In this document: piece by piece, positions 3,752-29,100 of the stretch
Layout: every line of letters begins with the position of its first letter
How positions within the stretch are numbered: position 1 is the first letter of the stretch
Origin: an uncultured bacterium
GTDB taxonomy: Bacteria > Actinomycetota > Acidimicrobiia > Spongiisociales > UBA5794
NCBI GenBank assembly: GCA_963801165.1
Contig: CAWDDT010000013.1
Coordinates: 1 to 64,000 of the forward strand
Reading direction: 5' to 3'
DNA length: 64,000 bases
Notes under the pieces: model-generated
Databases searched by the model: none
The model's input: the letters and a program-made list of their open reading frames with translations, nothing else
What the model was told of the DNA's origin: nothing
Translations under genes and position numbers: made by a program

Positions 3752-4924
3752 ATGGACCAGAGAAGCTACAGCACAATCGGCGGATTCCTGGGCATCATCA
3801 CATTCCTCATCCTGGTCGCAGGCGCCTTTGCGGACAATCCGGAAGCGAACTGGACGATTGGCAGCTCGCCCCTCGTACCCGCGATCTGGATCACGCTCCT
3901 CGGCATCCTGGTGGTATTGCTCTCGCGGACAGCCATGCGACGGATTCTCCCACTCCGAATCCTTGGTATGTGGGCATTCGGGGTGATGTTGGGAGGCATA
4001 GCAGCGGCTGTCATCCTCGGCTTCCGAGGTGAGTGGAATCTCGCCTGGAAGATGCTCGTACTCGGGGCGTCAGGTTGGCTCGCACAATTCTTGGTTGGCA
4101 TTCCCTATCGGTCGGAGCAAGACAGCGCGATCCATCAGACGGCCCGTCAACTTCGCACTACGCCCCGTCAAGTAGCTGAGTTCTTCTGCTCTCGCTTGGC
4201 TACAGCCGGAGGCGACCCTGAAGTGCTGGCTCTGAGTGTCACGGACGACCCACGAGTCGCGCCCCTCGAGCACGCGACAATAGATGAGGTAGTTGCCGAC
4301 CACTGTCCTGAGTATCAGCAGGTCTGGGAAGCAGCAAAGAGGATCCTCCGGTACGAGCGGGAACATCAGACTTCAGGCGGAGGAACGTTGATCGAGAATC
4401 TCATCGCAAATCCTTCGATGGAGTCCGACGAGATTAGAGCGGCGATGGGTCGCCAACAAGAGTCTTCAGATCGCTTCCTCAGCGCCGCGTCGACAAGTTG
4501 GCCCGATAGGAACGAGTACGGCTGGCCGGCTCTCACTGCAGAGGTCAAGATCTGGCTGAAGGAACAGCGGGGATGGGAACCAGCCTCGTTGGAAGCGTCC
4601 CTGTCTCCGGGAATGATGACGGCCTCGCCGAACCTCATGTTTCGAGTCGAGATGAACGCCACCGACGATTTCATCTGGAGTCAATCCGTGTACCTGCTGC
4701 CGAGACCCGACCTCAGCCAAGACGTACCCTCGTACGAGTTGCGTTGGACAGACCCAAAAACCTATCAACAGAACCAAGCCGCTATTTCATCTGAGTCCGC
4801 GAATCTCGCACTTCTGGCGGACTACCTCGACGGGCATTGGGCAGGAGCCTCCTCCGATCCCGTCATGCAGAAGTTCCTTGCACCTGAGCCTTCAGTCTTC
4901 CCACCCGAGGCACCGCAACCCTAA
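3752..4924 (+). CDS. Hypothetical membrane protein (about 4 N-terminal TM helices plus soluble C-terminal domain)
   Basis: 390-aa ORF, AAGGA RBS, four hydrophobic segments in the first ~120 aa. Confidence 0.65.
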   Translation: MDQRSYSTIGGFLGIITFLILVAGAFADNPEANWTIGSSPLVPAIWITLLGILVVLLSRTAMRRILPLRILGMWAFGVMLGGIAAAVILGFRGEWNLAWKMLVLGASGWLAQFLVGIPYRSEQDSAIHQTARQLRTTPRQVAEFFCSRLATAGGDPEVLALSVTDDPRVAPLEHATIDEVVADHCPEYQQVWEAAKRILRYEREHQTSGGGTLIENLIANPSMESDEIRAAMGRQQESSDRFLSAASTSWPDRNEYGWPALTAEVKIWLKEQRGWEPASLEASLSPGMMTASPNLMFRVEMNATDDFIWSQSVYLLPRPDLSQDVPSYELRWTDPKTYQQNQAAISSESANLALLADYLDGHWAGASSDPVMQKFLAPEPSVFPPEAPQP

Positions 4925-4926
4925 GG

Positions 4927-5685
4927 ATGTGTGAAGTGTTCAAGAGAATTCTCGCAGGTCGAAATCCCGACCCCATGCTTCTTTACGCCTACCTGATGTA
5001 TCGCAACGGGATGCTCGTCGATGCGCGACCTACAGAGGCAGAGAATAGATACGAGCCCTTCTCTCTGAGCGAGGCACTAACGGTTCAGAACGGGTGGATC
5101 CTGGACTTCCTCACCGAGACGCGGACTCATTTGGCAACTGCCATTGCAGTTGATTGGCGGGTTGACACCAAGCGGCTAACTTCGCTTGGCCCGCTGGATC
5201 TCTTCTTGGTGCTGCACCGCGCCGAAGCATTGGGTGAGAGCCGCGGCTGGGAAATGCCGCTGAATACACCGACTCCTCGGTGGCCGCGGCTGCGAGGCGA
5301 CGAAGTGGAGCAATGTTTGCGCAGTGCACCATCCACGGATCTCAGTCCCGAACAACGCCACGAGATGAGACGCAAGCTTCTGTTGGAGGTGATTGAGCAT
5401 CGGCGGGGAAACCTCGCGGTGGAGTACTCAGTCGGGGTGCGGGAGAACGCAAGATCGTTGGCCGTAGCGTTCTCGGTGCGTTCGCTTACCGAGCATTGGA
5501 CGCAGGTCGATAGCGACGCCTTTGCCGAGAAATGGCTGTTCCCCTCCCCTTCGCGGTCGGAATCCGATCTGTTGCAGCTTGTTCAGTCCTTCAGTGCTGA
5601 CTGGATGACCTGGGAAGCGAAGGGGGAATGCGGCGATGCAAGGTGTTCACAATGTGGTCCCACGACCCCCCGACGTCCACAATGA
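4927..5685 (+). CDS. Hypothetical protein
   Basis: 252-aa ORF starting 2 bp after the upstream stop; C-terminal CxxxxCxxC. Confidence 0.5.
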   Translation: MCEVFKRILAGRNPDPMLLYAYLMYRNGMLVDARPTEAENRYEPFSLSEALTVQNGWILDFLTETRTHLATAIAVDWRVDTKRLTSLGPLDLFLVLHRAEALGESRGWEMPLNTPTPRWPRLRGDEVEQCLRSAPSTDLSPEQRHEMRRKLLLEVIEHRRGNLAVEYSVGVRENARSLAVAFSVRSLTEHWTQVDSDAFAEKWLFPSPSRSESDLLQLVQSFSADWMTWEAKGECGDARCSQCGPTTPRRPQ

Positions 5686-5886
5686 AACGGTGCGCACGGG
5701 TGGCCGTACGAGTGCACCTGGATCAGTGGTGAACAGTTCGAATTGTGCGCAACGCCAGCGACGCGGCATAGAAAGAGAACGGCGCCTTCTCGCTGCTGAA
5801 CCATCCACATAGGTGGCGACATAGAGGCTCGCACGCCTTGGCATTCATGTTCCCATCCACTCCTCGGTCCGCCGCGACTTCGCCGA

Positions 5887-5916
5887 TTGCTGGTAACGGT
5901 GCGAATGTTCCGCATG
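5887..5916 (+). repeat. Degenerate intergenic repeat, copy 1 (most diverged)
   Basis: TTGCTGGTAACGGTGCGAATGTTCCGCATG matches the core of the copies at 6960, 7571 and 8760. Confidence 0.55.
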
Positions 5917-6067
5917 GTATGGGCTGGTTTGATCGTGTCTCGTTGGTGATCGTCTGACAATGACCGGCGCCCTGGGGTCGACACCTCCGCGCGCGTTCTC
6001 CGGATGCCGCTCTGCGGCATAGTGTGGGTGGTGATCGCCGAGTCTCTCGGGGTCTAGGCTCGCCGGT

Positions 6068-6889
6068 ATGCCTACTCCTAGCGCATCCTTCAGCATGCCT
6101 TGGCTCGATTGCAGCGACGAACACTCAGCCTTGGCTTCACTCGCTGGAGTCATGGCGGTGCCACAGTTGACGCTGCTACAGGCGGTCGATGAGTACGACG
6201 ACGAGAAGTTCGAAGACGACGCGTCGGTGTCTCCAGACGTGCTTATGCCGCGTGAGGTGTTCAGGCAGTTTGGGACGACCACGGAACGAGTGGTGTCCGG
6301 CTTCGCCGGGGCTCACTACTTCCACGGAACTCGAACGAGTGAGCCCGATTCGTTCTGGCGGAGTGGCATCTTGACATTGGCTGGAGCTCTCGACGAAATC
6401 TGGGAAATGCTTCGCCGCCTGACGAGTCTGGCGATACCGGCACCGGAGTGGATGCAGTACCGGGAGAACCTCGAGAAAGGCGCTAGCGATTCTAATAGCG
6501 CGTACCTCTACCGGCTCAAGGTGGGAAGCCCTCGCGTTGGCGGCGGTCCCTTCGCTCGGCTGGTTCGTGCCGCACACATAGACCCACGCCCTCCGGAACG
6601 CGATTACCTCACTAAGCCTCCCGAAATCGTTGAGGACATCATCAGAGTGCTCGAGTATGACCACGAACTGGCCCTGTACGAGCGGTACATCGCTACAACC
6701 CAGCCATGTTTGGTCAGATTCAGGAGCGAGTGGATAACGACAACGGAGGTCGAAGCGGCGCTGTGGTTCTTACTTGACCGATGTCGAGACAGGCAGCCCA
6801 GTCGATGGGCATGTCAGAGCAACTTCTCGGGAGGAGGCAATCCCATACCCGCCACCGACATCCTGGACGTTGAAGTTCTGGCTCGTTAA
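6068..6889 (+). CDS. Hypothetical protein, possibly ADP-ribosyltransferase-like fold
   Basis: 273-aa ORF; YFHGTR..GIL resembles the first catalytic strand of ART-fold proteins. Function uncertain. Confidence 0.55.
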   Translation: MPTPSASFSMPWLDCSDEHSALASLAGVMAVPQLTLLQAVDEYDDEKFEDDASVSPDVLMPREVFRQFGTTTERVVSGFAGAHYFHGTRTSEPDSFWRSGILTLAGALDEIWEMLRRLTSLAIPAPEWMQYRENLEKGASDSNSAYLYRLKVGSPRVGGGPFARLVRAAHIDPRPPERDYLTKPPEIVEDIIRVLEYDHELALYERYIATTQPCLVRFRSEWITTTEVEAALWFLLDRCRDRQPSRWACQSNFSGGGNPIPATDILDVEVLAR

Positions 6890-6934
6890 GCGCGGGGTGC
6901 TTGCCCGCTCGCAGACACGCTTGTCACAGCATCC

Positions 6935-7005
6935 CCACCACACAACCATTCGATCGCTTTTGCTGGTAATGGTGCGTATACCGGCATGTCGAGTGGGTGC
7001 GGTGG
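6935..7005 (+). repeat. Degenerate palindromic intergenic repeat, copy 2
   Basis: CATTCGA(6947)..TGCTGGTAA-TGGTGCGT-ATACCGGCA..TCGAGTG(6995); outer CCACC/GGTGG arms extend the hairpin. Confidence 0.7.
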
Positions 7006-7111
7006 AGTGGCAGTGAGTCGCCGGGGAGAGGCGTGGGATAGCCGCCGCTGTGCAGACGGCCGTTGTGGGGCTCGGGTGTCGGGCGTCTTCGGGCCAGAGG
7101 AGTGGTGGCCC

Positions 7112-7348
7112 ATGCAGCATCGAGTCCTCACGGAACCACCAAGCGCGACCACATCGACGACCCAACCTCGCCCCGCTCGGCAGTACCAGCCCAACCAGTA
7201 TGGATGCCACGACGACGGTCGATGCCTCGATGACTACGGCACGTGGTGTGACGACTCTGAGATCATTGAGTTCGAACCCACTGGTGAGTCCATCTGCGCC
7301 GACAGCTACGACATCGCCGTTGACGAACTCGTTGACCGCAATGGTTGA
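7112..7348 (+). CDS. Small acidic Cys-containing hypothetical protein (78 aa)
   Basis: ATG at 7112 preceded by AGAGGAG; four Cys; lies between repeat copies 2 and 3. Confidence 0.35.
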   Translation: MQHRVLTEPPSATTSTTQPRPARQYQPNQYGCHDDGRCLDDYGTWCDDSEIIEFEPTGESICADSYDIAVDELVDRNG

Positions 7349-7558
7349 GCTGTCAGCATCAGCCGGCGTCCGAGCCCGACTCGGGTGACAACAGCGCGTT
7401 AGGTGCCGCCGACCGCCGGTGAATGACCAGTTCTGTCCGAATCAGTCGGTAACTCATTCGCACCCCGAGACGCCGCACGCCACCATCCCGACCAAGACGA
7501 AGAACCCCAATGAATCCGGGCCCGCTCGCAGGACCGCGCGGATTCTCTCCCTGAGGCT

Positions 7559-7612
7559 ATTCGACGCGGTTTGCTGGTATCCGTGCGTATTGCGGCGTGT
7601 CGAATGCGATCG
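7559..7612 (+). repeat. Degenerate palindromic intergenic repeat, copy 3
   Basis: ATTCGAC(7559)..TGCTGGTAT-CCGTGCGT-ATTGCGGCG..GTCGAAT(7605)GCGATCG. Confidence 0.7.
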
Positions 7613-7787
7613 GTTTGGTTGAGTCGGATTTGCCGGTGTCCTGGGCTCGGCGGCTGGCCCCAAAACTCGGGCCCCAGACCTGTGGCACTATGAGTCACAG
7701 TGAACGAAACTGGCTCGAATGATCGCGTCTCCTGGTTTCCGGTACTCCATCGAATCTTGGGTCGGCACAGCTAACGTCGGAGAAGCC

Positions 7788-8618
7788 ATGGCCAATGACC
7801 TCATTCACCCCCGTGCCCGACGCGAGTTCCGTGAGCTTTGCTCCGACTGGGGCGTACTCCGAACCATCTCTGGTGCTTTCGAGGTTGAAGGATTCGAGGC
7901 GGTTCCCGACGACGAGCGGTCATACATAGACGGCATGCGTCGTGGCTTGTTCGATGCCTACGCGTCACGGATCGATTGGAGCGATCCGAACGAGGTTGGA
8001 CGCGTCATTCGGGCATTTGACGAAGTCTTGTCCTGGGGTCTCGCTGACAACGAATATACCGAAAAGGCTCTTGCTCGGGTGCGACGCACGCTTGAGCACG
8101 ACGGTTACACCGTCGACGACGAACGACGAATCATGCACATATCAACTCGCCCCCTGGCCGAGCTGCCGTTGGAGCAGCTCCGAGACCCCTCGGCCATCGA
8201 AGAACACCTCAGACGACTCGACTCGACAGGCGACGCCGATCCGCCGCTGGCGATTAGCTCCGCCAAGGCGCTGGTCGAAGCGACCTGCAAGCACGTCCTT
8301 GAGGAGCTCGAGCAGTCCTACGACGACAAGGCCGACCTTCCCAGCCTGGCCAAAGCTGTCCAGAAGGCCCTGCACCCAGATCAGATTGCGCCCACCGCCA
8401 AGGGAAGAACGACCATTGTGCGGACGTTGTCTAACCTGTCGCAGGTCGCAATCGGACTCGCTGAACTGCGCAACGAGTACGGCCCCGACCACGGTCGAAC
8501 CCGATCGACGTCGGGGATGAGACCTCGCCATGCACATCTCGCCATCGGTGCTGCTCAGACGTATTGCCGGTTCCTCCTCGAGACTCTCCGCGATCGGCGA
8601 TCTGCTGCTTCTCCATGA
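7788..8618 (+). CDS. Abortive infection family protein (AbiJ-like N-terminal domain plus Abi_C/HEPN C-terminal domain)
   Basis: Motifs AISSAKALVEATCK, ELRNEYGPDHGR and PRHAHLAIGAA are typical of Abi_C. Start taken at ATG 7788 (ORF open from 7719). Confidence 0.85.
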   Translation: MANDLIHPRARREFRELCSDWGVLRTISGAFEVEGFEAVPDDERSYIDGMRRGLFDAYASRIDWSDPNEVGRVIRAFDEVLSWGLADNEYTEKALARVRRTLEHDGYTVDDERRIMHISTRPLAELPLEQLRDPSAIEEHLRRLDSTGDADPPLAISSAKALVEATCKHVLEELEQSYDDKADLPSLAKAVQKALHPDQIAPTAKGRTTIVRTLSNLSQVAIGLAELRNEYGPDHGRTRSTSGMRPRHAHLAIGAAQTYCRFLLETLRDRRSAASP

Positions 8619-8744
8619 AGGAGCGGCTTTAGGCCCCGGTCTTGGATGCGGCGTGCGGTGCGTCCACGACTACACCCCCACCTCGTCGGCAGCGCTACAT
8701 TTCCAGTCGTCGGCAACTATGCAGAGCCGCAGGTTCCCAGGACA

Positions 8745-8802
8745 ACTCGACGCACGACTTGGCTCGTAATGGTGCGTATTCCCGCGGGGTCGAATGTGAT
8801 CG
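8745..8802 (+). repeat. Degenerate palindromic intergenic repeat, copy 4
   Basis: ACTCGAC(8745)..GGCTCGTAA-TGGTGCGT-ATTCCCGCG..GTCGAAT(8795)GTGATCG. Confidence 0.65.
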
Positions 8803-8998
8803 ATCCAACCGAACGAGATTGTCACTCGCTCGAAGAGATGGGGGGCGTCACATGGATCTGTAGGGTGAACCCAGTGAACGTCGAGAAGGTCAGGCGATCA
8901 TCCTTCTCGGCGTCGCTATCGGCATCGCTCGCGCCAGGATCCTGGAACGACCGCCGACAGGCCCGTAGCCAGGAGTGGCACCTCCGATAGGTACCTCA

Positions 8999-11900
8999 CT
9001 ACCCGCATCCATCGTTCCAATGAGAATCGAAGGACTCCAGCCAATTCGCCAGAGTCTGTGACTCAGCTATCAAGCAGCCAGTTTGCCCATGCAATTCCAG
9101 TCTGTCGATCGCTAGAGCGAGCAAGGCATCTGGGACCAGCCCGGACAACGAGTTATCCGAGAGATACATGCCTGTGAGGTTGGACAGGTTCCCGAGTTCC
9201 GGAGGAATCGAACCGGTCAACGAGTTGAACGACAGTGACAGTCCCGTGAGATTCGTCAGGTTGCCCAATTCAGGCGGGATTGAACCGGACAGCGAATTGT
9301 TGGCAAGCCACAGAACATCAAGGTTACTCAGATTTCCCAATTCGGGCGGAAGCGGACCGGACAGTGAGTTGTCGTATAGGTAGAGCGTTTCCAGATTCTC
9401 AAGACTTCCCAATTCAGGCGGGATCGCACCCGACAGTAGATTGTCATCGAGCGACAGCCACTCCAACTTGGACAGGTTCCCGAGTTCCGGGGGAATCGAA
9501 CCGGTCAACGAGTTGAACGACAGTGACAGTTGCGTGAGATTCGTCAAGTCACCCAACTCAGGCGGAACTGGACCCGACAACTCTGGGTTGCCGGCAAGCG
9601 CCAGATCATAAAGGTTACTCAGATTTCCCAATTCGGGCGGAATCGATCCTGATAGATCGCCGTCTAGGCTGAGGACGGTGAGATCTGTCAGGCCACCTAG
9701 CTCGGGCGGAATGGTGCCGGACAGTGCGGTGTCGCCGAGCTGCAGGAAATAGAGATTAGTCAGGTTGCCCAGCTCCGGCGGAATCACGCCCGACAATGAC
9801 GGCTCGTTGTACAGTGACAGAACCTCAAGGTCAGCTAGGTCATCTATCCGTGAGGGAATCGAACCCACCAAGGAATTGCCGGTGAACACCAGCCGAATTA
9901 GCTTGCCATCGGTGCAGGACACACCGAACCAATTGCATGGATCGGGGATATCAAGCCAGCCGGTATTGTCAGTCCAGTTATCTCCGCCGGTCGCGAGATA
10001 GAACGCAACCAGCGCATCGCACTGCTGTTGGGGGACCGACGCTCGAGACGCGCATCCCGCCCAGCCTGGTGACCCACTTGCGACGATCATCCCTAGCGAG
10101 GTGAGGTCGCCCAGGCCGTTGGTATCCGTGGCGGCAATCTCGAAGTTGTACACCCCGACCGCAACCGGCGTGCCTGTGATCTCGCCTCCCGAACTCAGGA
10201 CTAGACCGTCTGGTAGCGTTCCTGACCTGACTGTCCACGTGTACGGAGGAGTGCCTCCTTCTGCCTGGAGTTGGTAGGCGTAGCTCTCACCTTCGGTCGC
10301 CTCGGGGAGAGCAGTAGTTGTGATCGCGACCGGTGAGCCTTCGTACGGTCCGGATGCCTGGGCTAAGATCCTTTCGCAGCAGTTGATCTCAGCAACGGTG
10401 ATCTCACCCTTTTCGATGAACAGGTCCCAGTTGATATCGAAGGCGATCCTGCCTCCGGCCTTGAGAATCCACCACGGGTTGTCGGTAACGTCGGCGGTAA
10501 GATCAACGTAAGGTCCGATCTTGATCTCGGCGCCGAGTCGGTCCCGATATGAGAGATCGAGCTGAGGCCCGACATAGATGTTTAGGGTGCCACCGGAAGA
10601 GATAGTGACTTCCGGGGTATCTGCGTTGTCGTGATGTTCCGAGATGCGGTGGAAGCCTCCGTTGGCATACTCAGCACCGACGTGGAAGAAGTCGTGCCGG
10701 CTAAAGTTGAACCCGACCCTCGTGTCGAGCCTTACCTGGCCCTCAAGTTCAAACTCCAACGCCACGTCGACGGGGAAGCCCCCAGGGCCGGGGAAGGAAC
10801 CTAGCGGGATGTGTACTGGTTCCCACTCGAGGTCACAGTCGACACCCGCAATCGGGGTGGAGCCAACCAACGCGGAATCGAGCGCTACGTCCGCGGTTAG
10901 GTGAGCCACGGTTGGGACACCCGGGCCCCAGTTGAATACTGCGTTCCAGCTTGGCCCCTTTACATCGATCGTTGCCTTGAGGTCAGGTAGCGCTTCTCCT
11001 GGCTGTGCGCACTTCAGGTCATACTGCTTGGCCGACGCAGGAACTGCATACGCTACCGCGTCCTCGACTGGGTCACTCTGATAGACCAAGTGGACCTCGG
11101 GCATAGCTGCCTGCAGTGGGACTTGTTCGGTGCTGACCAGCAAACCACCGCCACCAACGGCTGCCACATCTATGACTCGCCCGAGCACACCGTTGGGGTA
11201 TCGGCTAGTGGGACGCATAGCGAGGATATGGTCAATCGGCGGGGATACAGCGCCCGCAGCCATTGTCACCATGTCGTTACCAGCTGCATCGACGGTCACA
11301 TTGGCGACCTCATTCTCGCCGACGACCGTGGTGACGGTCGGATCGAACCGGTTCACCCCGGGTGAGCCAATATCGGGTTCGCCCATTGCTCGCCACATGA
11401 ACGTCGCCATCTGGCCTCGGGTCACATAGTCGTTTGGGCAGAATCGATCGTTTGCAGGCGGGTTACACCCGGCAGTGATTCCCGCCGCTGCCAGCTTCGC
11501 AATGTCAGACTCGAACACAGACCCGTCATCGTCAACAAACGTGTTACCGCCACCATCATCAGTCAACCCCAAAGCTCGCACCAAGAACGCCGCCATCTGG
11601 CCACGAGTCACCGGATCATTAGGACAGAACATCGTATTGTCCGGCGGATTACAGCCTTTGGTCACACCCGCCTCGGCAAGCCGCTCGATATCGGCCTGAA
11701 AGATCGACACATCATCATCAGCGAACCAGTCCGACCCCGCCCCGTCTCGATAGAACATCAACCGTGTCAAGAACGCAGCCATCTGGCCCCGCGTTACCCG
11801 AGCATCTGGGCAGAACCGATCATTGGACGGTGGATCACAGCCTTTGGTGATGCCCTGATCAGCCAGCCACTCAATCGCGGACCCAAAGACATGACCATCA

Positions 11901-12019
11901 GGCACATCGACGAACCGAGGCGAATCCGCAACCGCCGCCGGCGACCCGTCACCGCCAACCCCCACTAACGCCGTCACCAAGACAGCCACGCCAACTAGCA
12001 GCGACACGCCACGATTCAC
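8999..12019 (-). CDS. Secreted SLH-domain protein with a putative Ig (He_PIG) domain and about 11 plant-type LRRs
   Basis: GTG 12019 after GGAGG; signal peptide; three GIT.GC.PP..FCP..VTRGQMA.F repeats; AEGGTPPYTW..G.LP.GL.L..G.ITGTP; LRR cap W..W..PC.W.GV.C; 24-aa LxxLxLxxNxLSGxIPPELG repeats. Confidence 0.85.
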   Translation of the reverse strand: MNRGVSLLVGVAVLVTALVGVGGDGSPAAVADSPRFVDVPDGHVFGSAIEWLADQGITKGCDPPSNDRFCPDARVTRGQMAAFLTRLMFYRDGAGSDWFADDDVSIFQADIERLAEAGVTKGCNPPDNTMFCPNDPVTRGQMAAFLVRALGLTDDGGGNTFVDDDGSVFESDIAKLAAAGITAGCNPPANDRFCPNDYVTRGQMATFMWRAMGEPDIGSPGVNRFDPTVTTVVGENEVANVTVDAAGNDMVTMAAGAVSPPIDHILAMRPTSRYPNGVLGRVIDVAAVGGGGLLVSTEQVPLQAAMPEVHLVYQSDPVEDAVAYAVPASAKQYDLKCAQPGEALPDLKATIDVKGPSWNAVFNWGPGVPTVAHLTADVALDSALVGSTPIAGVDCDLEWEPVHIPLGSFPGPGGFPVDVALEFELEGQVRLDTRVGFNFSRHDFFHVGAEYANGGFHRISEHHDNADTPEVTISSGGTLNIYVGPQLDLSYRDRLGAEIKIGPYVDLTADVTDNPWWILKAGGRIAFDINWDLFIEKGEITVAEINCCERILAQASGPYEGSPVAITTTALPEATEGESYAYQLQAEGGTPPYTWTVRSGTLPDGLVLSSGGEITGTPVAVGVYNFEIAATDTNGLGDLTSLGMIVASGSPGWAGCASRASVPQQQCDALVAFYLATGGDNWTDNTGWLDIPDPCNWFGVSCTDGKLIRLVFTGNSLVGSIPSRIDDLADLEVLSLYNEPSLSGVIPPELGNLTNLYFLQLGDTALSGTIPPELGGLTDLTVLSLDGDLSGSIPPELGNLSNLYDLALAGNPELSGPVPPELGDLTNLTQLSLSFNSLTGSIPPELGNLSKLEWLSLDDNLLSGAIPPELGSLENLETLYLYDNSLSGPLPPELGNLSNLDVLWLANNSLSGSIPPELGNLTNLTGLSLSFNSLTGSIPPELGNLSNLTGMYLSDNSLSGLVPDALLALAIDRLELHGQTGCLIAESQTLANWLESFDSHWNDGCG

Positions 12020-12188
12020 TCCGATACCTCCACGTCCCACGAGGATCCCCGCGTACAATAGCCACAACTGGCACAACTACCCAGACCCCATAGCCAACAA
12101 CGAGGGCGACCAGCACCAACGCCCGACGCAACGCTGCTACGTCACCCTGGGTGCCGCCATAGGGCGCTGGCAGGCAAGAACTCACCAG

Positions 12189-14165
12189 TCATGAGATGCC
12201 CAGGCTGAACTCCGTGGTGGGTCGATGGTTTCTGCTTGGAAGGCGACTGTGCTGCAGGTAGCGTCGGATCGTCCGCTCGTCGCGGCCTGTCAGCGTGCAG
12301 ATGAGGTGGATAGCTTCATCGCGGTCATCGGCGTGGACGATCGTTGCGACGACCCCGCCGGCGCTTCGGATTGCCCGAGCCAGACTCTCCGGCTCCTCCA
12401 GGTTGTGACGGTGAAGGGCATCCTCGATCAGGCAGAGCTCAAGCAATGTGGTCTCCTCGAGAGCACGGGCGAATGCCGGTGTATCGCTGGTGAGAAGCTC
12501 CGCTGGATCTCGGTTCTCGGGAAGGTGTGCAACCGACAGGCGAACGGGGCGGTTGGCACGTAGGTTGGCGGCGCGGCGTGCTGCGAGCAGACCTGCACGA
12601 TCACCATCAAAGGCGAGCGTCACGTTGGTGGTGATCCGAGCAAGTGTGTCTAGGTGCTCGGCGGTCAGTGCGGTACCGGCCGTGGCGATGACATTAGAAA
12701 AGCCAGACTTGGTGGGCAGCGATGGCGTCGGTGTATCCCTCGACAACGATCGCTCCCCCGGCATCCATGATCGGCTGTCCCGCGAGGTGGAGACCGTATA
12801 GCAGCGACCCCTTGTGGTACAGCTCGGTCTCGGGGCTGTTGAGATACTTGGGGCCGTCGCCTTCGATGAGTCTCCCGGCGAACCCCCGCGGTCTGCCCTC
12901 TTGGTCGAGGATCGGGAAGACCACTCGGTCGCGCATCCGGTCGTACAGGCGGCCGTTTCGTGACCTTCCCACGACGCCGGCGGCAAGCATTATCTCGTCA
13001 CCGAACCCTCCATGGCGAAGTTTGGTGGTCAGTGCCTGCCAAGCGTTCGGGGCGTATCCGAGCTGCCATGTGTCGAGCGATTCATCACTCATGTTCCGAG
13101 AGTTCAGGTATTCGAGGGCTTGGGCTCCGGCCGGGCTGCGGAGCTGCTGCATGTAGAAATCAGTTGCCGCCTCCAGGACCCGTTCGAGATCTCGTCGGAC
13201 CGGGCTCCGGGAGCGTCTGACTTCGCCACCGCCCTCTGTCGACATCTCGATCACTCGTGGATTCTTTTCCCGTTCGTGCTCGAGGTCGCGGCTCTGTTCG
13301 AGCTGGTCGATCACGGTTCGGGCGCAGCCGATGACCCGGTTGGCGGTGGCTGTCACCTTGGCGAGATCGCCTCCGCTCCACGAAGCCACATAGGGGAGGC
13401 TGTAACCGGCGCTGTCGATCCCAAGCGCGGCGCACACCATGTATGCCACAGACTCGGCCTCTACCTCGATGATGCCACGGCAGGTTGGTCGCTCCTGTGA
13501 GGTCGGTTCGTGCAGCCGAACGTGGGCGAGTTCATGGACGGCGGTCTTGAAGCGCTGAGCGCCGGGGAGGCTGGCGCGTACGATCACGTCCCGCTGGGTC
13601 CAGTCGGTGATGCCGTTGGCTTCGTCCGAGCCGGTCGGAATCGGCCACTTGGAAACCGAACCCGGCGTCGGCGATCAGCTTGGTGACCTGTTCCCAATGG
13701 GCCGGGAGACTCCCCTCCAAGAGCTCTGCCCGCATCTCGGGTAGGGGTTCCCCGTCGGTTTGCGACTGGTCGAAGACGTGGACGATGCGATACCCGACCA
13801 CCCGCCGTTCCTCCTTCTCCTGTTCCCGTGCCTCATTTTCCGGCGTGATCTTGCGGATGATCGGAGCGAGGATCTGCAAACCTCGTTCACCTCGCCGCAC
13901 CTGGCGGCCGAGCTGCTGCCACGCTCGATAGCCAGCGACCCGACTCGGGGTGAAACCCCGAGCCAAGTGACTGCGCCCAGATGAGCCGAGTGTTGGCGAA
14001 CGAGTAGTCGTGGAAGCGGGCCGCCACAGCCAAAGCTCGCTGCCAATCCTCAGACGAGATCAGCTCCTGGAGCGAGTCTTGGAGCTGGACGTGAAGCCGC
14101 TCAACGGCTTCGCTGCGCTCGACGTTCTCATCGGAGTGATCCACCCCCGCATCCTCTGACCCCAC
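12189..14165 (-). pseudogene. ArdC-like ssDNA-binding domain + HExxH metallopeptidase + DnaG-type primase (Toprim) fusion, with 3 frameshifts
   Basis: Consecutive fragments: FHDYSFANTRLI; VAGYRAWQQLGRQVRRGERG; HELAH..EVEAESVAY; LGYAP..DRMRDRVVFPI..GFAGR..PKYLNSPET..LYGL..VVEGYTD; GTALT..AFDGDRAG..DPAELL. Confidence 0.8.
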
Positions 14166-14277
14166 CCTCTCACCAGAGTCTCACCAGCCCTCTGATCAGA
14201 GTCTCAGCAACCCTCTCAAGAGCCGCCAACCCGGTCCCGGTCCAGGCTGTCGTCGAATGGGACTCTGGTGAGAGGGT
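14164..14277. promoter_or_regulatory. 23-bp direct repeats plus a perfect 17-bp inverted repeat in the divergent region between the primase fusion and xis
   Basis: CCCTCTCACCAGAGTCTCACCAG (14165), CCCTCTGATCAGAGTCTCAGCAA (14188), CCCTCTCA (14211). ACCCTCTCACCAGAGTC (14164-14180) is inverted at 14261-14277. Confidence 0.7.
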
Positions 14278-14589: not shown

Positions 14590-15739
14590 ATGGCTCGTGG
14601 TTCGATCGATCGACGCGACAACGGCAGGTACCGCGCTCGCCATGAAGGGACCGATGGCCGTTGGCACAGCCGGACCTTTGATCGGAGGGTGGACGCGGAA
14701 CGGTGGCTGAGCGACCAGGTGTCGCGAACGAGCCACGGGACATGGATCGATCCCAACGCCGGACTGATCTCTCTCGAGGAGTACAGCGAGGCATGGCTGG
14801 CAGCCAAGTCACGCCTCAAGCCCAAGACTCGCCAGGGCTACCTCTCACTCCTGAGGTCCCGGATCCTCCCCGAGCTCGGCGACAGGCGACTCGCCACCAT
14901 CGACCGTGCGCAAGTCGGTAGCTGGGTCAGCAAAATGACCCGCGACGGCCTGTCACCCTCCCGGATTCGCCAGGCTCACCAGTGTCTGGCTGCGATCCTC
15001 GAACAGGCAGTCGATGACCGGCTCATCAGCCAGAACCCTGCTCGTCGCGTGGAGCTTCCTCGACAGGCCCAGCCCGAACACCGCTACCTCACCTCCGATC
15101 AGGTCGAGCGGCTTGCCGAGGCGATGCCGGACCCACAGTATTCAACAATGGTCTTTGTGCTCGCGTACGGCGGGCTCCGGTGGGGAGAACTCGCAGCACT
15201 CCGCCGCGACCGGGTAGACGTGCTACGCCGGCAACTCCACGTCACAGAGGCATTGGCTGAACTCGGCGGGCGCCTCGAGTTCGGGTCTCACCAAGACACA
15301 CCGCTCACGAACGGCCTACCTTCCACGGTTCGTTGCCGAAATGGTCGGACAGCACCTCAACGATGTCCCGCCCGAGCCAGATTCCCTGGTGTTCACGGCA
15401 CCGAACGGCGGACCGCTCCGGTACTCGAACATGAGGCGCCGGTTCTGGAACCCGGCGAGATCAAGAGCTGGCGAGGACCTGGCGGCGATCACCCCGCACG
15501 ACCTCCGGCACACGTGCGCGTCGCTGATGAGAGCGGCAGGCGCCGACGTGAAGGCAATCCAGCAGCAGCTCGGTCACCGCAGCGCGACCGTGACCCTCGA
15601 CACCTACACCCACCTCTTCGAAGGCGACCTCGCCGCGATCATGGACAGACTCGATGCATACACAGCCACTGCCGACCGCTCCAAGCCAGCCGTACCGGGC
15701 GTTGCCAGCCTGAGCCGTTCCGGAAATGCGGTAGGTTGA
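14590..15739 (+). CDS. Tyrosine recombinase/integrase (one frameshift near 15285)
   Basis: GGAGG RBS; GGLRWGELAAL; after the shift TKTHRSR..PHDLRHTCAS..LGH..TLDTYTH (R-K-H-R-H-Y catalytic set). Confidence 0.9.
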
Positions 15740-19947: not shown

Positions 19948-19950
19948 CGG

Positions 19951-20024
19951 TGGGCCCGGCAGGACTCGAACCTGCGACCTACGGATTATGAGTCCGCTGC
20001 TCTGACCGACTGAGCTACGAGCCC
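19951..20024 (-). tRNA. tRNA with CAT anticodon, most likely tRNA-Ile2 (lysidine type)
   Basis: GGGCTCGTAGCTCAGTCGGTCAGAGCAGCGGACTCATAATCCGTAGGTCGCAGGTTCGAGTCCTGCCGGGCCCA folds into a cloverleaf. G1-C72 pair and no GGG/CCC anticodon stem, so not the initiator. CCA not encoded. Confidence 0.9.
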
Positions 20025-23146: not shown

Positions 23147-26100
23147 TCAGACAGGCACGCGCACCGGCATCCCGTGCATGGCAGCCGGGTTGGGCGCCGC
23201 CTCACGCATCAAGCCGGCAATCGACGGTTCGTCCTTCTCGTACCGGAAGAAGATGCGCCAGCTCTCGGCGTGCTCCTCGTTGCCCACCACAAGGCTGTGC
23301 ATGTTGGCGAACTCGATGGGGACCGGATACTGATGCTCGAGGAAATGTGCGTCACGGTTGCGGTATGCGGCCGCCACCGACTCCCCTACCTCCTCGGCAA
23401 AGGTGTTCTGGGTGGTCGGCGCGTCGCCCGTCCAATTCCACCACCAGTACACCGAAGCGCCCAGCAACAGTCGCTTCAGCGAGTTGGCTGAGAACCGGAC
23501 CGGTGGGCCGTAAAGCGCCACGTGCAAGTCGTGGCCGGCCGTAATCGGCAGCAAGTCCTCGCTGCCGTAGATACGATCCACGAGATCCGCAACCACCCCG
23601 TGGGTCCGGTGGTCTTCGCGGAAGACCACCTCGGGAACCTGTTCTGTGATGAACTCGGAATACACCCACCCGTCACCTTCGGGGGTCTCCACCTCGACCC
23701 AGACTTCGCTGCGGACCATTGTCCGCGCTCCGGTGGTGATGATGCCCTTTTCGTCCTCCCTGAAGCGATGAATCACACGCTGGTGTGCTCCCGCCTCCTC
23801 ACGAACGGGGACGCCTGCCTGCGACGGGGCCATCACGATGTCGACCCGTTTCTTGTCGACGAGCGGCAGAGCGGTCGGGGCACTCGAGAACACAAACCGG
23901 CGGCTGAAACCGAGATACAAAGACGCCACAAGCAGAAGCAACAGCACGAAGGACGGGAGCCGGAGGGCCAGGAAGGTCCCCAGAACGGAGCCGATCATGA
24001 GCCGCAGCCCGACCACCACAGAGGTCCTACCGTGGCTGCCGTCACCGTCGCCACCGAACACCGACCCGACGCTGACGTGATCCGACACCAGCGACGGGAT
24101 GCCGACGAGTTCGGCCGGGATCTCCACCGCCACCCGCAACAGAGCTGTGGCGCGTACTCCCGCCGGGTCCGTGGCGACATACGCAAGTGCCGGCACATCC
24201 TTGACGACGCCGTGGAGGTCAAACACGAACACGCCGGCGGAGACCTGCTGGACGGTGCTCGATGGCGGCGCTTCCAGCAGGTATGACAGCTGGTCCCCAT
24301 CGATGTCAGCGGCGAAATCGTCGAGATCGACCGTCAGCGTGCTGCCGGACCGACCCACCACGGCGGCGTCATGGGCCAGCGGAGCATCGTTCACCGGGTT
24401 GATGGTGAGTTTCACCTCGGCCGAGCCCGTCAGGTCACCGTCGGTGATCTCGTAGATGAAAGAGTCCACGCCGTTGTAGTCCCGCTCCGGCTTGTACGTG
24501 AAGACACTGCCGGTGTTCCAGGTGACCGATCCGTGCTCCGGATCGCCGACACCCACGATCTGCACCGGCTCGTTGTTCGGGTCTGAGTCGTTGTTGAGAG
24601 GTCGGAACACCGCCGTCGTGTCCTCATCGAGCACAACCACGTCCCCCACCGCAGTGGGAGCTACGTTCTCCTCGATGGCGATCTGGACTGCGATCGGCTC
24701 CGACTGCCTCATTCCATCGTCGACGCGGTACTCGAAGCCGTCGAGGTCGCCGGCGCTGCCGTCGTGCTCATAGCGGAACGAACCACCGTCGCCGAGTGAC
24801 AGCGTGCCGTGTGTCGGGCTGCTTTGGACGACCGCCGTCAGCGCAGCCCCCTCGTAGTCGTGATCGTTTGTCAGGACACCCGGTGCTTCAATGGTCAGCA
24901 CGCCGCCTCTCCTCACGACATAGCCGTCGGCGTCGCCCACCGGCGCGTAGTTCGGCGTGATGGTCACGGTGACGGTCCCGGTTGCGGACAGGTCTCCGTC
25001 GGAGACCCTGTATGCGAACGTGTCGGTGCCGGCGGCAGTCACATCGGGTGTGTACACGTATGCTCTCGGGCCACCGCTCAAGCTGCCCTTGGCCGGCTCG
25101 TTCTGAAGGGAGTACGAGATGGCGTCGCCGTCCGGATCGCTACCGGCGAGCACGAGCGAGATCGGGACACCGGCATCGGCCTCGAGATGCAGGTCGGTGG
25201 CGACGGGGGCACGATTCGTGTTGTCGACACGCCAGGTAAATGTCGTCGCGGTAGACCGCTGCGGGCTGCCGCTGTCGCCGGCGGTCACCGTCACCGCGTA
25301 TGGCGACCTGGCGGCCGCGTCGAACGGCAACGTGCCTGTGATGCGTCCGCTGGCAGCATCGATGCTGAGCCCGGGCGGGAGACCGCTTGCCGTGTAGTGC
25401 AGTGTGTTCGCAGGTATGTCGCTGTCACTGGCCATAATGTCGAGGGTGACATTGTCGTTCTCGCTCGACACCTGGTAGCCCGGGTTGACGACGACCGGCG
25501 CCGCGTTGACCTCCGTGACGGTGATGGTCACCTGACGCAACCCGGAGAGGCTCGGCGTACCGTTGTCGGTGGCCACCACGTTGAACGAGTAGCCGCCGGG
25601 GCCCTGGGACTCGCTCGGTGTCCACGTGAAGACCCCGCCCGACGTCATCGCCGACCCGGCCGGAGCTCCACTGAGTGAGAAGGCGACCGAATCGTTCTCG
25701 ATGTCGGAGGCTGAGGCAGTGAAGGAGATCAGCTGCTGCTCCCCGCCGGTCCGGTTGGAGATCGGGGCGATGGTTGGGGCATCATTGACCGGGGTAACGG
25801 TGATGTGGAGCGTGGCGACATCCATCCCTCCCCTGCCGTCCGAGAGGCTGTATGAGACCGAGTCGGGACCGTTATAGTTCGGATTCGGAAGATACGAGAT
25901 CCCGCCGGCGGCGACCTGCGCAGACCCGTGGGAAGGCGCCCCCAAACCCGCGATCGACAGCGGATCACCGTCGGGGTCCATGTCGTTGCCCAGCACGTTG
26001 AACACGCGGACCGAGTCCTCGGCGACGGTGCCCGCGTCGTCGCTGCCGATCGGGTTACGGTTGGTGTCCCCGACGGTCCAGCCGAACGTCGTCTGTCCGG

Positions 26101-29100
26101 TGCCGTTTGGCGAACCGTTGTCGATGACCGAGACGGTAGCGGTGTAAGGGGACGAGGCGTTGGCCGTGTAGCCGATCGTGCCGGTTATCTGCCCGGTTCC
26201 GGAATTGATGGCGAGACCCGGCGGCAGACCCGCGGCTGAGTAGATGAGCGTGTTCGCAGGCACGTCGCTGTCGACGGCCGCGATGCTCAACGAGACCGTC
26301 TGGTTCTCCGCTGACGACTGGGAACCCGGAGATACAACGACGGGAAAGCGTTGGTCTCACCAACCGTCACAGAGAGCGCCGCGCTGTCTCCCAGGCTCGG
26401 GGTGCCGTCGTCGGCTACCGCGACGGTGAAAGCGTAGGTGCCCGGGCCCTGTGCCTCCGTCGGCGTCCAGCTGAATGCCCCTGTCGCCGGGTCGATCGTT
26501 GCGCCGGCGGGTGCCCCCGACATTGTGAAGGAGAGGGAGTTGTTGGGTATGTCGGAGTCACCCGCCGGGACACTGAAAGCTATCGGGGTCAGCTCGTCGC
26601 CGCTCTGTGGAGCCATCGCCCCGAGCGCGGGCGCGGAGTTCACCTCACCCACGGTGACGTCGACCGTCTGTGCGTCGGAAAGGGCTGGAGTGCCGGCGTC
26701 GGTCACGACGACATCGAAGCTGTAGACGTTGGGGCCCTGGGCTTCGGTCGGCACCCAGCTGAAATCACCGGTAACAGCGTCGATTGTCGCTCCCGCCGGT
26801 TCCCCGGCGAGGCCGAAGCTGAGCGTGTCGGTCGGATCCGGATCGCTGGCCGTTGCGGTGAAGGTGATCGCGGTCTGCTCGTCACCCGTCTGGTTCGCCA
26901 ACGGGCTGAGCGTCGGGGACGCGTTGACGACATTCACGGTACGGGTGCGCTGCACGGCCGCGTTCCCGTTGCTGTCGGTGACGTTGTACCTGACCGGGTA
27001 GGGCCCGACCACGGAGGTGTTCACCGCAGAGGCATCGATCACTACTGAACCGGTCAGATCGCCGTCATAGTTGTCGGTCGCCGTCGCCCCCAACTCCACA
27101 TACGGGCTGCCCACGTCGACGGTCTGCGGATTCGAGCCGGTCAGCGTGATCACCGGCGCCGTTGTATCGACCACGTTGACGGTTCGGGTCCGCTGCACCG
27201 CGGCATTGCCGTTGGCGTCGGTGACGTTGTACGTCACCGGGTACGACCCGACCACCGACGTGTTCACCGCCGACACATCGATCACGATGGAGCCCGAGAT
27301 GTCGCCGTCGTAGTTGTCGGTGGCATTGGCTCCCAACTCGACGTACGGGCTACCCACCTCGATCGTCTGCGGATTCGCCCCGGTGAGCGTGATCACCGGC
27401 ACAGTCGTGTCGACGACGTTGACGGTGCGGAAGGCGCTTGCCGGGTTGCTGCTGCTGTCGGCAACGTCGTAGGCGACAACGTAAGAGCCGACGGTGGTCG
27501 TGTCGACGGCAGATGCGTCGATCACGATGGAGCCGGTCAGATCGCCGTCGTAGTTGTCGGTCGCCGTCGCCCCCAACTCGACGTACGGGCTACCCACCTC
27601 GATCGTCTGCGGATTCGCCCCGGTGAGCGTGATAACAGGCACCGTCGTGTCGACAACGTCGACGGTCCGACTGCGCTGGACGGCCGCGTTCCCATTCGAA
27701 TCGGTCACGTTGTAGGTCACGGGGTAGGAACCGACTACCGACGTGTTCACCGCCGACGCATCGATCACGATCGACCCGGTCAAATCACCGTCATAGTTGT
27801 CCGTCGCCGTCGCCCCCAACTCCACATACCCGCTGCCCACGTCGATCGTCTGCGGATTGGCGCCCTGAACAACGATATCTGGCGCAGTGGTGTCGACGAC
27901 CTGAACGGTGCGCGTCAGTGGCAACGCCGCGTTGCCGTTTGCATCTGTGACGTCGTAGGTCACGGGGTAGGAACCGACTACCGACGTGTTCACCGCAGAC
28001 GCATCAATCACGATCGACCCGGTCAGATCACCGTCGTAATTATCCGTAGCCGTCGCCCCCAACTCGACGTACGGGCTACCCACCTCGATCGTCTGCGGAT
28101 TCGCCCCGGTAAGGGCGATCACCGGCGCAGTTGTATCGACAACATCAACGGTGCGGGTCTGCTGGCTGGCCGGGTTTCCCTGTGAATCCGTCACGTCGTA
28201 GGTGACCAGATACGATCCGACCACCGCCGTGTTCACAGCCGAGGCGTCGACGACTATCGAAGCAGTCACGTCACCGTCGCCGGCATCCGATGCGGTCGCC
28301 CCCAACTCCACATACGGGCTGCTCACCTCGATCGTCTGCGGATTGGCGCCCACCAACGTGATCACCGGCGCAGCCGTATCCACGACGTTCACCGTCCTCG
28401 TCACCTCGACCGCCGGGTTGCCGTTGGCGTCTGTGACGTTGTAGGTGACCGGGTACGACCCCACCGTCGCCGTATTGACGGCGGAGGCATCGATCACGAT
28501 CGAACCGGTCAAATCACCGTCGTAATTGTCCGAAGCCGTCGCCCCCAACTCCACATACGCCGACCCCGCCTCCACGATCTGCGGATTCGAGCCATCCAGC
28601 GTGATCACCGGCGCCGTTGTATCGACCACGTTGACGGTTCGGGTCCGTTGCACCGCCGCATTCCCGTTGCCGTCTGTGACGTCGTAGGTCACCCAGTACG
28701 AGCCGAGTGTCGTAGTGTCGACCGCCGAGGTGTCGATCACAATCGATCCGGTGATGTCACCGTCGTAGTTGTCGAGGGCTGACGCCCCCAACTCGACATA
28801 GGGGCTAAACACCTCGATGACCTGCGGGTTCGCACCATTGAGCGTGATAACCGGTGCCGTCGTGTCGACGACCTGTACGGTGCGGGTCCGCTGCGCCGCT
28901 GCATTCCCGTTGCTGTCGGTGACGTCGTAGGTAACCGGGTAGGAACCAACCACCGACGTGTTCACCGCCGAGGCATCGATCACGATCGACCCGGTCAAAT
29001 CACCGTCATAGTTGTCGGAGGCGGTCGCTCCGAGCTCTGCGTATGGGCTGCCAACCTCGACGGTCTGCGGATTGGGCGCCCGTCAATGTGATAATCGGAG

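Follow-up and report, generated by a model that had tools for sequence, protein, structure and literature searches.

Four co-oriented repeat sites around three unrelated genes of an Acidimicrobiia genomic island: possible fossil junctions of a cassette-like array

In the genome of an uncultured bacterium affiliated with the Acidimicrobiia (Actinomycetota; Spongiisociales; UBA5794), three unrelated, co-oriented genes are bounded by four copies of a repeat site that has no further copy in the 4.55 Mb and 13 contigs of the assembly (GCA_963801165.1). The window that we analysed comprises the first 64 kb (positions 1 to 64,000) of contig C13 (CAWDDT010000013.1). The four sites, termed c1 to c4, lie within 2.9 kb of it; all are intergenic and oriented as the genes, and one of them stands at each boundary of the three genes. 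We tentatively interpret them as fossil junction (att-type) sites of a cassette-like, site-specific insertion process, a reading to which we assign a probability of about 0.4. An earlier note, made from the letters of the window, had proposed a recombinase-driven cassette system at this place; what holds of that proposal are the sites themselves, which are real, co-oriented, unique to the locus and situated at the boundaries of unrelated genes, whereas neither mobility nor a second array came to light. The sites and the three modules that they delimit follow each other in this order:

5881-5939, + strand: site c1, degenerate; core at 5887-5906 with 18 of 20 bases as in c2; without the outer inverted repeat
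6004-6020: palindrome between c1 and module 1, with perfect 7-base arms and a 3-base centre
6068-6889, + strand: module 1, 273-aa protein of a rare family, with a conserved start near 6095
6948-7003, + strand: site c2; outer repeat 6948-6994; core 6960-6979; 8-base arms with a 10-base centre; extended hairpin
6986-7348, + strand: module 2, small Cys-rich protein (annotated form 7113-7348, 78 aa)
7559-7614, + strand: site c3; outer repeat 7559-7605; core 7571-7590
7788-8618, + strand: module 3, full-length Abi_C (HEPN-type) abortive-infection protein, AbiJ-like (PF14355, 2.8e-19; PADLOC AbiJ, 1.4e-9)
8745-8802, + strand: site c4; outer repeat 8745-8795; core 8760-8779

The best conserved part of the sites is a 20-base core, TTGCTGGTAATGGTGCGTAT, which is matched with at most 3 mismatches at positions 5887, 6960, 7571 and 8760, exclusively on the + strand and with spacings of 1073, 611 and 1189 bases. 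Such matches are lacking from all of 100 dinucleotide-preserving shuffles, which confirms the four co-oriented copies and the distances given for them in the earlier note, and a degenerate 15-mer retrieves the same four sites where 0.02 would be expected. A pattern search of the whole genome finds the core four times in forward and never in reverse orientation (reversed control, 0), and a 26-base profile recovers the four sites at E values of 0.001-0.013, the next match having an E value of 7. Short-word BLAST of 91-base units against the genome detects no further copy. When the profile is built from c2 to c4 alone, c1 is the top match outside the training set in the entire genome (13 bits, E 0.29), and the match that follows lies inside a 526-aa open frame; over the profiles, the next-best matches have E values of 2-7. 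The possibility that the motif is a genome-wide repeat, i.e., a repetitive extragenic palindrome (REP) or a miniature inverted-repeat transposable element (MITE), had been raised in the earlier note as well. Such repeats occur as many dispersed copies on both strands, and since here only four copies exist, on one strand and within 2.9 kb, the sites do not belong to this class.

Pairwise alignment limits the similarity between the intergenic regions to about 56 bases (6948-7003, 7559-7614, and 8747-8802), and these units score 34-45 against each other as compared with at most 31 in shuffles. The copies differ at 10-34% of their positions and by small indels; c4 carries 2 extra bases to the left of the core and 1 extra base to the right. 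Homology among c2, c3, and c4 opens exactly at a left 6-7-base inverted repeat (ATTCGAC ... GTCGAAT in c3). This outer inverted repeat, A(T/C)TCGA...TCGA(A/G)T, spans 47, 47, and 51 bases in the three copies, in good agreement with the approximately 47-51 bp noted before. On its own the pattern is matched 92 times on both strands of the genome, i.e., at about 46 places in 4.55 Mb, and because it is that rare, its centring on the core is unlikely to be due to chance; since the three copies are homologous, however, their outer repeats count as one event. Across the copies, a variable right arm contrasts with the conserved left arm and centre, which form the core, and a good inner palindrome is confined to c2. 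Site c1 aligns with the others over the core only, with a gapped alignment to c3 covering 5881-5939. The sites are located 118-182 bases upstream of the annotated gene starts, and 58-210 bases of non-coding spacer separate a stop codon from the site that follows. Site c4 is not followed by a co-oriented gene, as the next gene converges on the array from 8999.

With regard to folding, the long hairpin that had been predicted for c2 is borne out: as single-stranded DNA this copy folds with -13.8 kcal/mol (z -1.8). The hairpin is specific to c2, and the DNA folds of c1, c3, and c4 are no better than those of shuffles. In the alignment of the four copies, a two-stem model allows pairing in 80% of the cells, compared with 26-45% if the partner is slid; 88% of the cells are paired in the outer stem and, with G-T pairs counted, 74% in the inner stem, which is absent from c3 and c4. 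In all four copies RNA of the + strand folds more strongly (-18.6 to -21.7 kcal/mol) than RNA of the - strand (-11.5 to -15.8 kcal/mol), the fold shapes of the + strand differing in c1 and c4. A palindromic layout is present in the sites; a conserved fold is not demonstrated.

The three genes between the sites are unrelated and are distributed independently of each other. Module 1 belongs to a family of 10 proteins among 5.8 billion clusters and of 30 metagenome loci (L078-L107), with H86, R89, Y148, and a PEIVEDI block as invariant features. Among its relatives are two of 85-88% identity (P0002, P0003). The AlphaFold model of module 1 is confident (pLDDT, the predicted local distance difference test score, 85.8). 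A Foldseek search with this model returns nothing at E values of at most 0.001, and in a wider structural search (VIA) the best match, at Z 5.6, is an Rhs ADP-ribosyltransferase (ART) toxin, while DarT, PARP, pertussis-like, and diphtheria-type chains recur at Z 3.6-4.6. These matches to a predicted structure weakly suggest an ART-like protein, a fair lead and no more. At three independent loci, a member of this family forms part of the cargo of islands in which the same stretch also holds an integrase and a tRNA gene. Apart from a tyrosine integrase in L081 and L089, the window and the 30 loci have no neighbours in common. The integrase of L081 is related to that of the island described here (33% identity over the N-terminal half), with a tRNA-Thr gene located about 4 kb upstream, and the one of L089 adjoins a tRNA-Val gene. 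All that L079 and L081 share is the gene together with 55 bases upstream and 10 bases downstream. A palindrome similar to the one at 6004-6020 is found upstream of the relative in L081 and, in partial form, in L079, and it is absent from the other 16 loci examined. Since it lies between c1 and the gene and is common to the window and L081, module 1 seems to bring its own control region, and c1 is therefore not needed as its operator. In one of the public sequencing runs (X2), module 1 is matched at about 90% identity by contigs that extend over 6004-6876 and continue with more than 250 unlike letters.

Two of these loci show repeats of their own. In L079 and L080 the module 1 relative is followed by a gene whose first bases, in L081, stand on both sides of the module (7193-7215 and 8077-8097), which looks like a short duplication at an insertion point. 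In L089, a 642-kb metagenome contig, a sequence of about 50 bases occurs twice just downstream of the relative (10812-10860 and 12320-12370), 1.5 kb apart and 90% identical over 29 bases.

The reading frame of module 2 is supported by a metagenome contig of about 85% identity, from which it differs at 13 positions, 10 of them third codon positions. Its Cys-rich C-terminal domain (7079-7348), which contains the stretch QYGCHDDGRCLDDY, belongs to no Pfam family. The three closest relatives (64-72% identity, 126-199 aa) are homologous from 7079 onwards only, and nothing in 5600-9000 corresponds to the 32-109 conserved residues at their N-termini. An N-terminal truncation of module 2 is probable; it is not certain, because distant members of the family (33 representatives, 55-1461 aa) possess the C-terminal domain alone or behind other N-termini. 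One open frame per interval, as described in the earlier note, thus holds as a layout, with the reservation that the gene of the middle interval lacks the N-terminus of its closest relatives. The loss of homology occurs 85 bases after c2, as would be expected if c2 were a recombination joint.

Module 3 has 321 relatives; P0132 and P0012 are relatives of modules 2 and 3 with 72-80% identity. Among 400 other genomes of the class a single one (G490, contig C20; locus L118) encodes an Abi_C relative, without sites of this kind. That relative is flanked by direct repeats at 6525-6945 and 10256-10676, 3731 bases apart, with 97% identity over a stretch of 300 bases and shorter matches up to about 420 bases; they look like the outcome of an insertion that duplicated part of its target. 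All three modules have a similar GC content at third codon positions (GC3, 0.63-0.67), and the cargo has Actinomycetota-type relatives. Taken as sequences, the genes give the impression of self-contained units that travel separately and have the repeats at their joints. The stockpiling of defence genes proposed in the earlier note comes down to one Abi_C/AbiJ-like gene, the other two genes being without assigned function.

From this arrangement we infer recombination at the sites, the type of enzyme, and an order of events as follows. Small modules, each consisting of one gene and its own upstream control region, would have been inserted serially at a single site, each insertion regenerating a copy of that site; with the site regenerated every time, N modules would come to be bounded by N+1 co-oriented copies. 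The site itself is an element of about 56 bases that bears terminal inverted repeats of 7 bases and combines a conserved left arm and centre with a variable right arm, a layout that would suit a tyrosine recombinase acting on double-stranded DNA. In tyrosine-recombinase sites of such a layout, direction is given by the one conserved arm together with the spacer. The array now looks like a fossil, with c1 degenerate, module 2 devoid of the N-terminus of its relatives, the integrase and the primase of the island frameshifted, and no cognate recombinase identified. In favour of a cassette-like process we also count the context, a low-GC, tRNA-adjacent island with an integrase and other mobile-element remnants, and the end boxes ATTCGAC/GTCGAAT, which relative to the genes have the orientation of those of attC sites.

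A considerable number of results weigh against this interpretation, and every test able to reveal mobility or a wider family came back empty. Among 185,579 species genomes, an exact pattern fitting all four copies has 49 single, unclustered matches, approximately the number expected by chance; the only one from a related taxon falls within an ABC-transporter gene. Across 400 genomes of the order there are 24 scattered places, compared with 22 for the reversed control. A covariance model applied to 140 relatives, a set that includes the unpublished genome G004, counted for the negative result only, gives no match above 26.3 bits and no two matches close together; the best one (in G038) lies inside a 279-aa open frame and was treated as chance. 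The further arrays that the earlier note had hoped to obtain from profile and covariance scans of the genome and its relatives were therefore not found. A comparison of the 5.3-kb region with 130 genomes of the family yields a single match, of 63 bases; the DNA of the array has no relatives in plasmid and phage collections, and viral contigs contain six single pattern matches and no relatives of the proteins. None of the 30 module 1 loci carries the site, the best profile match reaching 5.6 bits and the sole fuzzy match having 5 substitutions, nor do their flanks contain any other common motif or flanking repeat; these homologs thus lack the sites, an outcome that the earlier note had named as speaking against its proposal. 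The relative of module 1 in run X2 diverges at the stop codon (6876), 72 bases before c2 and not at the site. None of the 15 hairpin pairs shows compensatory change across the four sequences, and the long spacers of 58-210 bases around the sites are unlike those of compact integron cassettes. No recombinase linked to the array was identified. The excised or reordered joints that the earlier note had suggested looking for do not appear in the contigs of four public runs, in which no joint skips or reorders a module; this negative result is weak because cover is 2-6x and patchy, parts of the stretch are without cover, and contigs alone cannot reveal rare forms.

Two other explanations do without recombination at the sites. 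The repeat might be a reused cis-regulatory element, either a DNA operator for a regulator of the island or the host or an RNA hairpin by which the transcript is terminated or processed behind each gene. What is conserved is an asymmetric 20-base sequence and not a stem, which is typical of protein recognition, and some actinophages possess asymmetric, co-oriented 'stoperators' to which such operators could be compared. All copies are oriented as the genes, each of the four follows a co-oriented gene, three precede one, and the stronger folding of + strand RNA extends to all of them. However, neither a sigma-70-like promoter nor an intrinsic terminator was found at the sites, no Rfam family matches them, and their fold is not conserved, c1 and c4 differing in shape and c2 alone exceeding shuffles as DNA. 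Moreover, c4 has no gene downstream, the sites are as far as 118-182 bases ahead of the annotated starts, no regulator gene was recognised in the island by family scans, and module 1 has an upstream palindrome of its own while its relatives elsewhere work without the site. On balance we regard a regulatory role as rather unlikely. Alternatively, the copies could be the functionless relic of a local duplication, one intergenic segment having been multiplied by unequal crossing-over or replication slippage and now decaying. This would agree with their restriction to one 3-kb stretch of one genome, with the degree to which they have diverged by substitutions and small indels without a compensatory pattern, and with the visible decay of the surrounding island, in which integrase and primase are frameshifted. 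Yet such events normally copy the flanking genes too, and here the unit of about 56 bases alone is shared, and the intervening genes are unrelated; the sharp left edge of homology at the inverted repeat and the presence of a site at every gene boundary argue for a discrete element, which makes a duplication relic decidedly improbable. The regulatory and the duplication explanation each account for less of the anatomy of the sites than fossil junctions do.

Two further explanations retain recombination and assign it to known machinery. If the sites were Xer-type (dif-like), the modules would have their counterparts in the dif modules of Acinetobacter plasmids or in dif-integrating elements and would have been moved by the host XerC/XerD. 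The genome does encode Xer-like recombinases, in an 11 + 6 + 11 reading of c2 the arms are palindromic at 7 of 11 positions, and a conserved arm and centre beside a variable arm are found in many accessory Xer sites. In c3, c4, and c1, however, only 5, 4, and 2 of the 11 arm positions match, and none of the sites has the palindromic arms and the 28-base 11-6-11 structure of a site like the host dif. The best dif-like sequence of the genome, a putative dif on contig C6 (about 196540-196570) and the sole fit to the strictest inner-palindrome pattern with a 6-base centre, is missed near 196551 by both site profiles, in line with the poor match to dif recorded in the earlier note. In addition, all sites are direct repeats, whereas dif modules alternate in orientation, and the array is away from any visible skew switch. 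Xer sites therefore appear very unlikely. The array might also be a genuine integron remnant acquired from another phylum, i.e., a cluster of attC sites lacking an integron integrase (CALIN). A CALIN does not need IntI, and the layout, four co-oriented sites in 2.9 kb with one open frame in each of three intervals, corresponds to the at least two sites within 4 kb by which a CALIN is recognised; three of the sites are palindromic, and c2 folds as a two-stem hairpin like a short attC. The earlier note had stated that the sites lack the ends of attC. Indeed they miss the consensus RYYYAAC/GTTRRRY, but in c3 and c4 (ATTCGAC or ACTCGAC ... GTCGAAT) by just one mismatch per box and in the right orientation, so that these are near misses; c2 has ATTCGAT ... 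GTCGAGT and c1 has no boxes. As far as PMC9024848 describes the phylum, a few CALINs are reported in Actinobacteria. Against an integron origin, the model TIGR02249 finds no integron integrase in the whole genome (best match 66.6 bits, none above the cut-off of 265), the AAC/GTT triplet reads GAC/GTC in c3 and c4 (GAT in c2), the centre and not the boxes is best conserved, the inner stem is missing in c3 and c4, and the GC3 of the cargo is local with relatives of Actinomycetota type. The span of 47-51 bases is also short, attC sites being longer than this. We consider an integron remnant highly improbable.

Several other candidates were tried and rejected. The four cores contain a similar short hydrophobic frame in which 9 of 14 substitutions fall on third positions; a hidden peptide is ruled out by the indels of c4 (+2, +1) and by unconserved flanks. 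The best local alignment of a site to the 48 tRNA genes scores 23, compared with up to 26 for shuffled sites, and the sites were not taken for copies of a tRNA 3'-end. Integration into dif, or identity with dif, was dismissed in view of the better dif-like candidate on another contig, which is unlike the site. As to promoters, there is no sigma-70-type match, and a comparison by eye with actinobacterial promoter motifs was unconvincing. Among known RNAs, tRNA-Met is the sole match at gathering thresholds, and a permissive Rfam scan of 5500-9100 gave one chance-level match outside the sites.

If the sites are regarded as fossil junctions of an insertion process, they invite comparison with several known systems. 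With integron arrays and CALINs they share the co-oriented imperfect palindromes after each of several unrelated single genes, the N+1 sites around N modules, and end boxes that resemble R boxes in sequence and orientation. Defence genes are reported to be stored in chromosomal integrons (bioRxiv 10.1101/2024.07.02.601686), and the cargo of the array likewise includes an abortive-infection gene. The differences are that the array has neither IntI nor attI, that GAC/GTC replaces AAC/GTT, that the centre of the site is conserved, opposite to the variable centre of attC, that the inner stem is gone in two of the three full copies, that the non-coding spacers are long, and that there are only three modules. 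The host phylum differs as well: as far as PMC9024848 and PMC4889954 cover it, integrons are essentially absent from Actinobacteria, except for one In0 and a few CALINs. A search of the full-text literature for integrons or gene cassettes of Acidimicrobiia yielded no relevant report.

The sfx sites of the R64 shufflon are asymmetric tyrosine-recombinase sites that are inverted relative to each other and drive inversions within one gene, with Rci encoded alongside. The array resembles them in the conservation of one arm and the spacer beside a variable second arm and in the occurrence of several copies within a short region; in contrast, its sites are direct, stand between whole genes, and have no recombinase adjacent to them. 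Tandem integrative elements, as in tRNA-linked islands or at dif, offer another parallel, since serial insertion at one site leads to direct site repeats between the units, and the array is itself situated in a tRNA-linked island with an integrase. However, its units of 0.6-1.2 kb are devoid of an integrase of their own, and the repeat copies none of the 48 tRNA genes nor the candidate dif.

The island that surrounds the array is characterised by a GC content of 0.55-0.62 from about 2 kb to 20 kb, compared with 0.64 for the genome, and the low-GC stretch stops at a tRNA-Met gene. Besides a STAND-like ATPase, it contains the following features:

308-2365: PD-(D/E)XK / REase-ARP nuclease
3752-5685: two co-transcribed genes upstream of c1, without a family match
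8999-12076, - strand: surface protein of 1025 aa with leucine-rich repeat (LRR), SLH, and He_PIG domains and a run of 72-base leucine-rich repeats, convergent on the array
12189-13966: DnaG-type primase, frameshifted, with an ArdC-N fragment, a DnaG core, and a Toprim domain in overlapping frames
14590-15739, + strand: tyrosine integrase split by a frameshift, with the N-terminal domains in the 14590 frame and the catalytic domain (15287-15739) in another
19949-20024, - strand: tRNA-Met gene at the inner edge of the low-GC island

The two genes at 3752-5685 match nothing in Pfam, NCBIfam, PADLOC, or PHROGs, have no usable match in the ESM Atlas, and match no recombinase family. The sole recombinase in the island is the frameshifted phage-type integrase, while the genome as a whole has 20 Phage_integrase matches. 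As both primase and integrase are frameshifted, the element is a decaying, pseudogenised remnant. The earlier note had considered that the integrase at 14590 might serve the sites, an idea which is disfavoured by the frameshift and by the position of its two integrase relatives beside or near tRNA genes. Just upstream of the integrase, at 14164-14277, lie an inverted repeat of 20 bases, whose arms are 95% complementary and separated by 74 bases, and a tandem pair of 23-base direct repeats; these may be arm-type or regulatory sites of the island. Dense internal repeats spaced by about 490-730 bases occur at about 24700-33900, in a region of large open frames on the - strand (23147-28998).

A broader possibility, which we regard as unlikely, is that the array represents a small, eroded example of an as yet undescribed system of gene capture in Actinomycetota, one that operates without an integron integrase. 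Such a system would insert and excise modules of one gene and its own promoter at double-stranded sites of about 56 bases, marked by a conserved arm and centre and by terminal inverted repeats. Its tyrosine recombinase would be encoded either at another place in the genome or on the delivering element, and defence and toxin-like genes would be assembled in this way inside tRNA-linked islands. A single short, partly decayed array without relatives or enzyme cannot carry such a claim. Of the machines that stack single genes behind a reusable site, integrons alone are well understood; to the extent that PMC9024848 treats the phylum, they are nearly absent from Actinobacteria. What makes the locus valuable is that it offers a concrete, testable site of about 56 bases, represented by three natural variants and a degenerate copy. 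If the gene-capture view were true, a different pair of site and enzyme doing the job of integrons in this phylum would change the view of how accessory and defence genes accumulate there, and it would constitute a new recombination tool.

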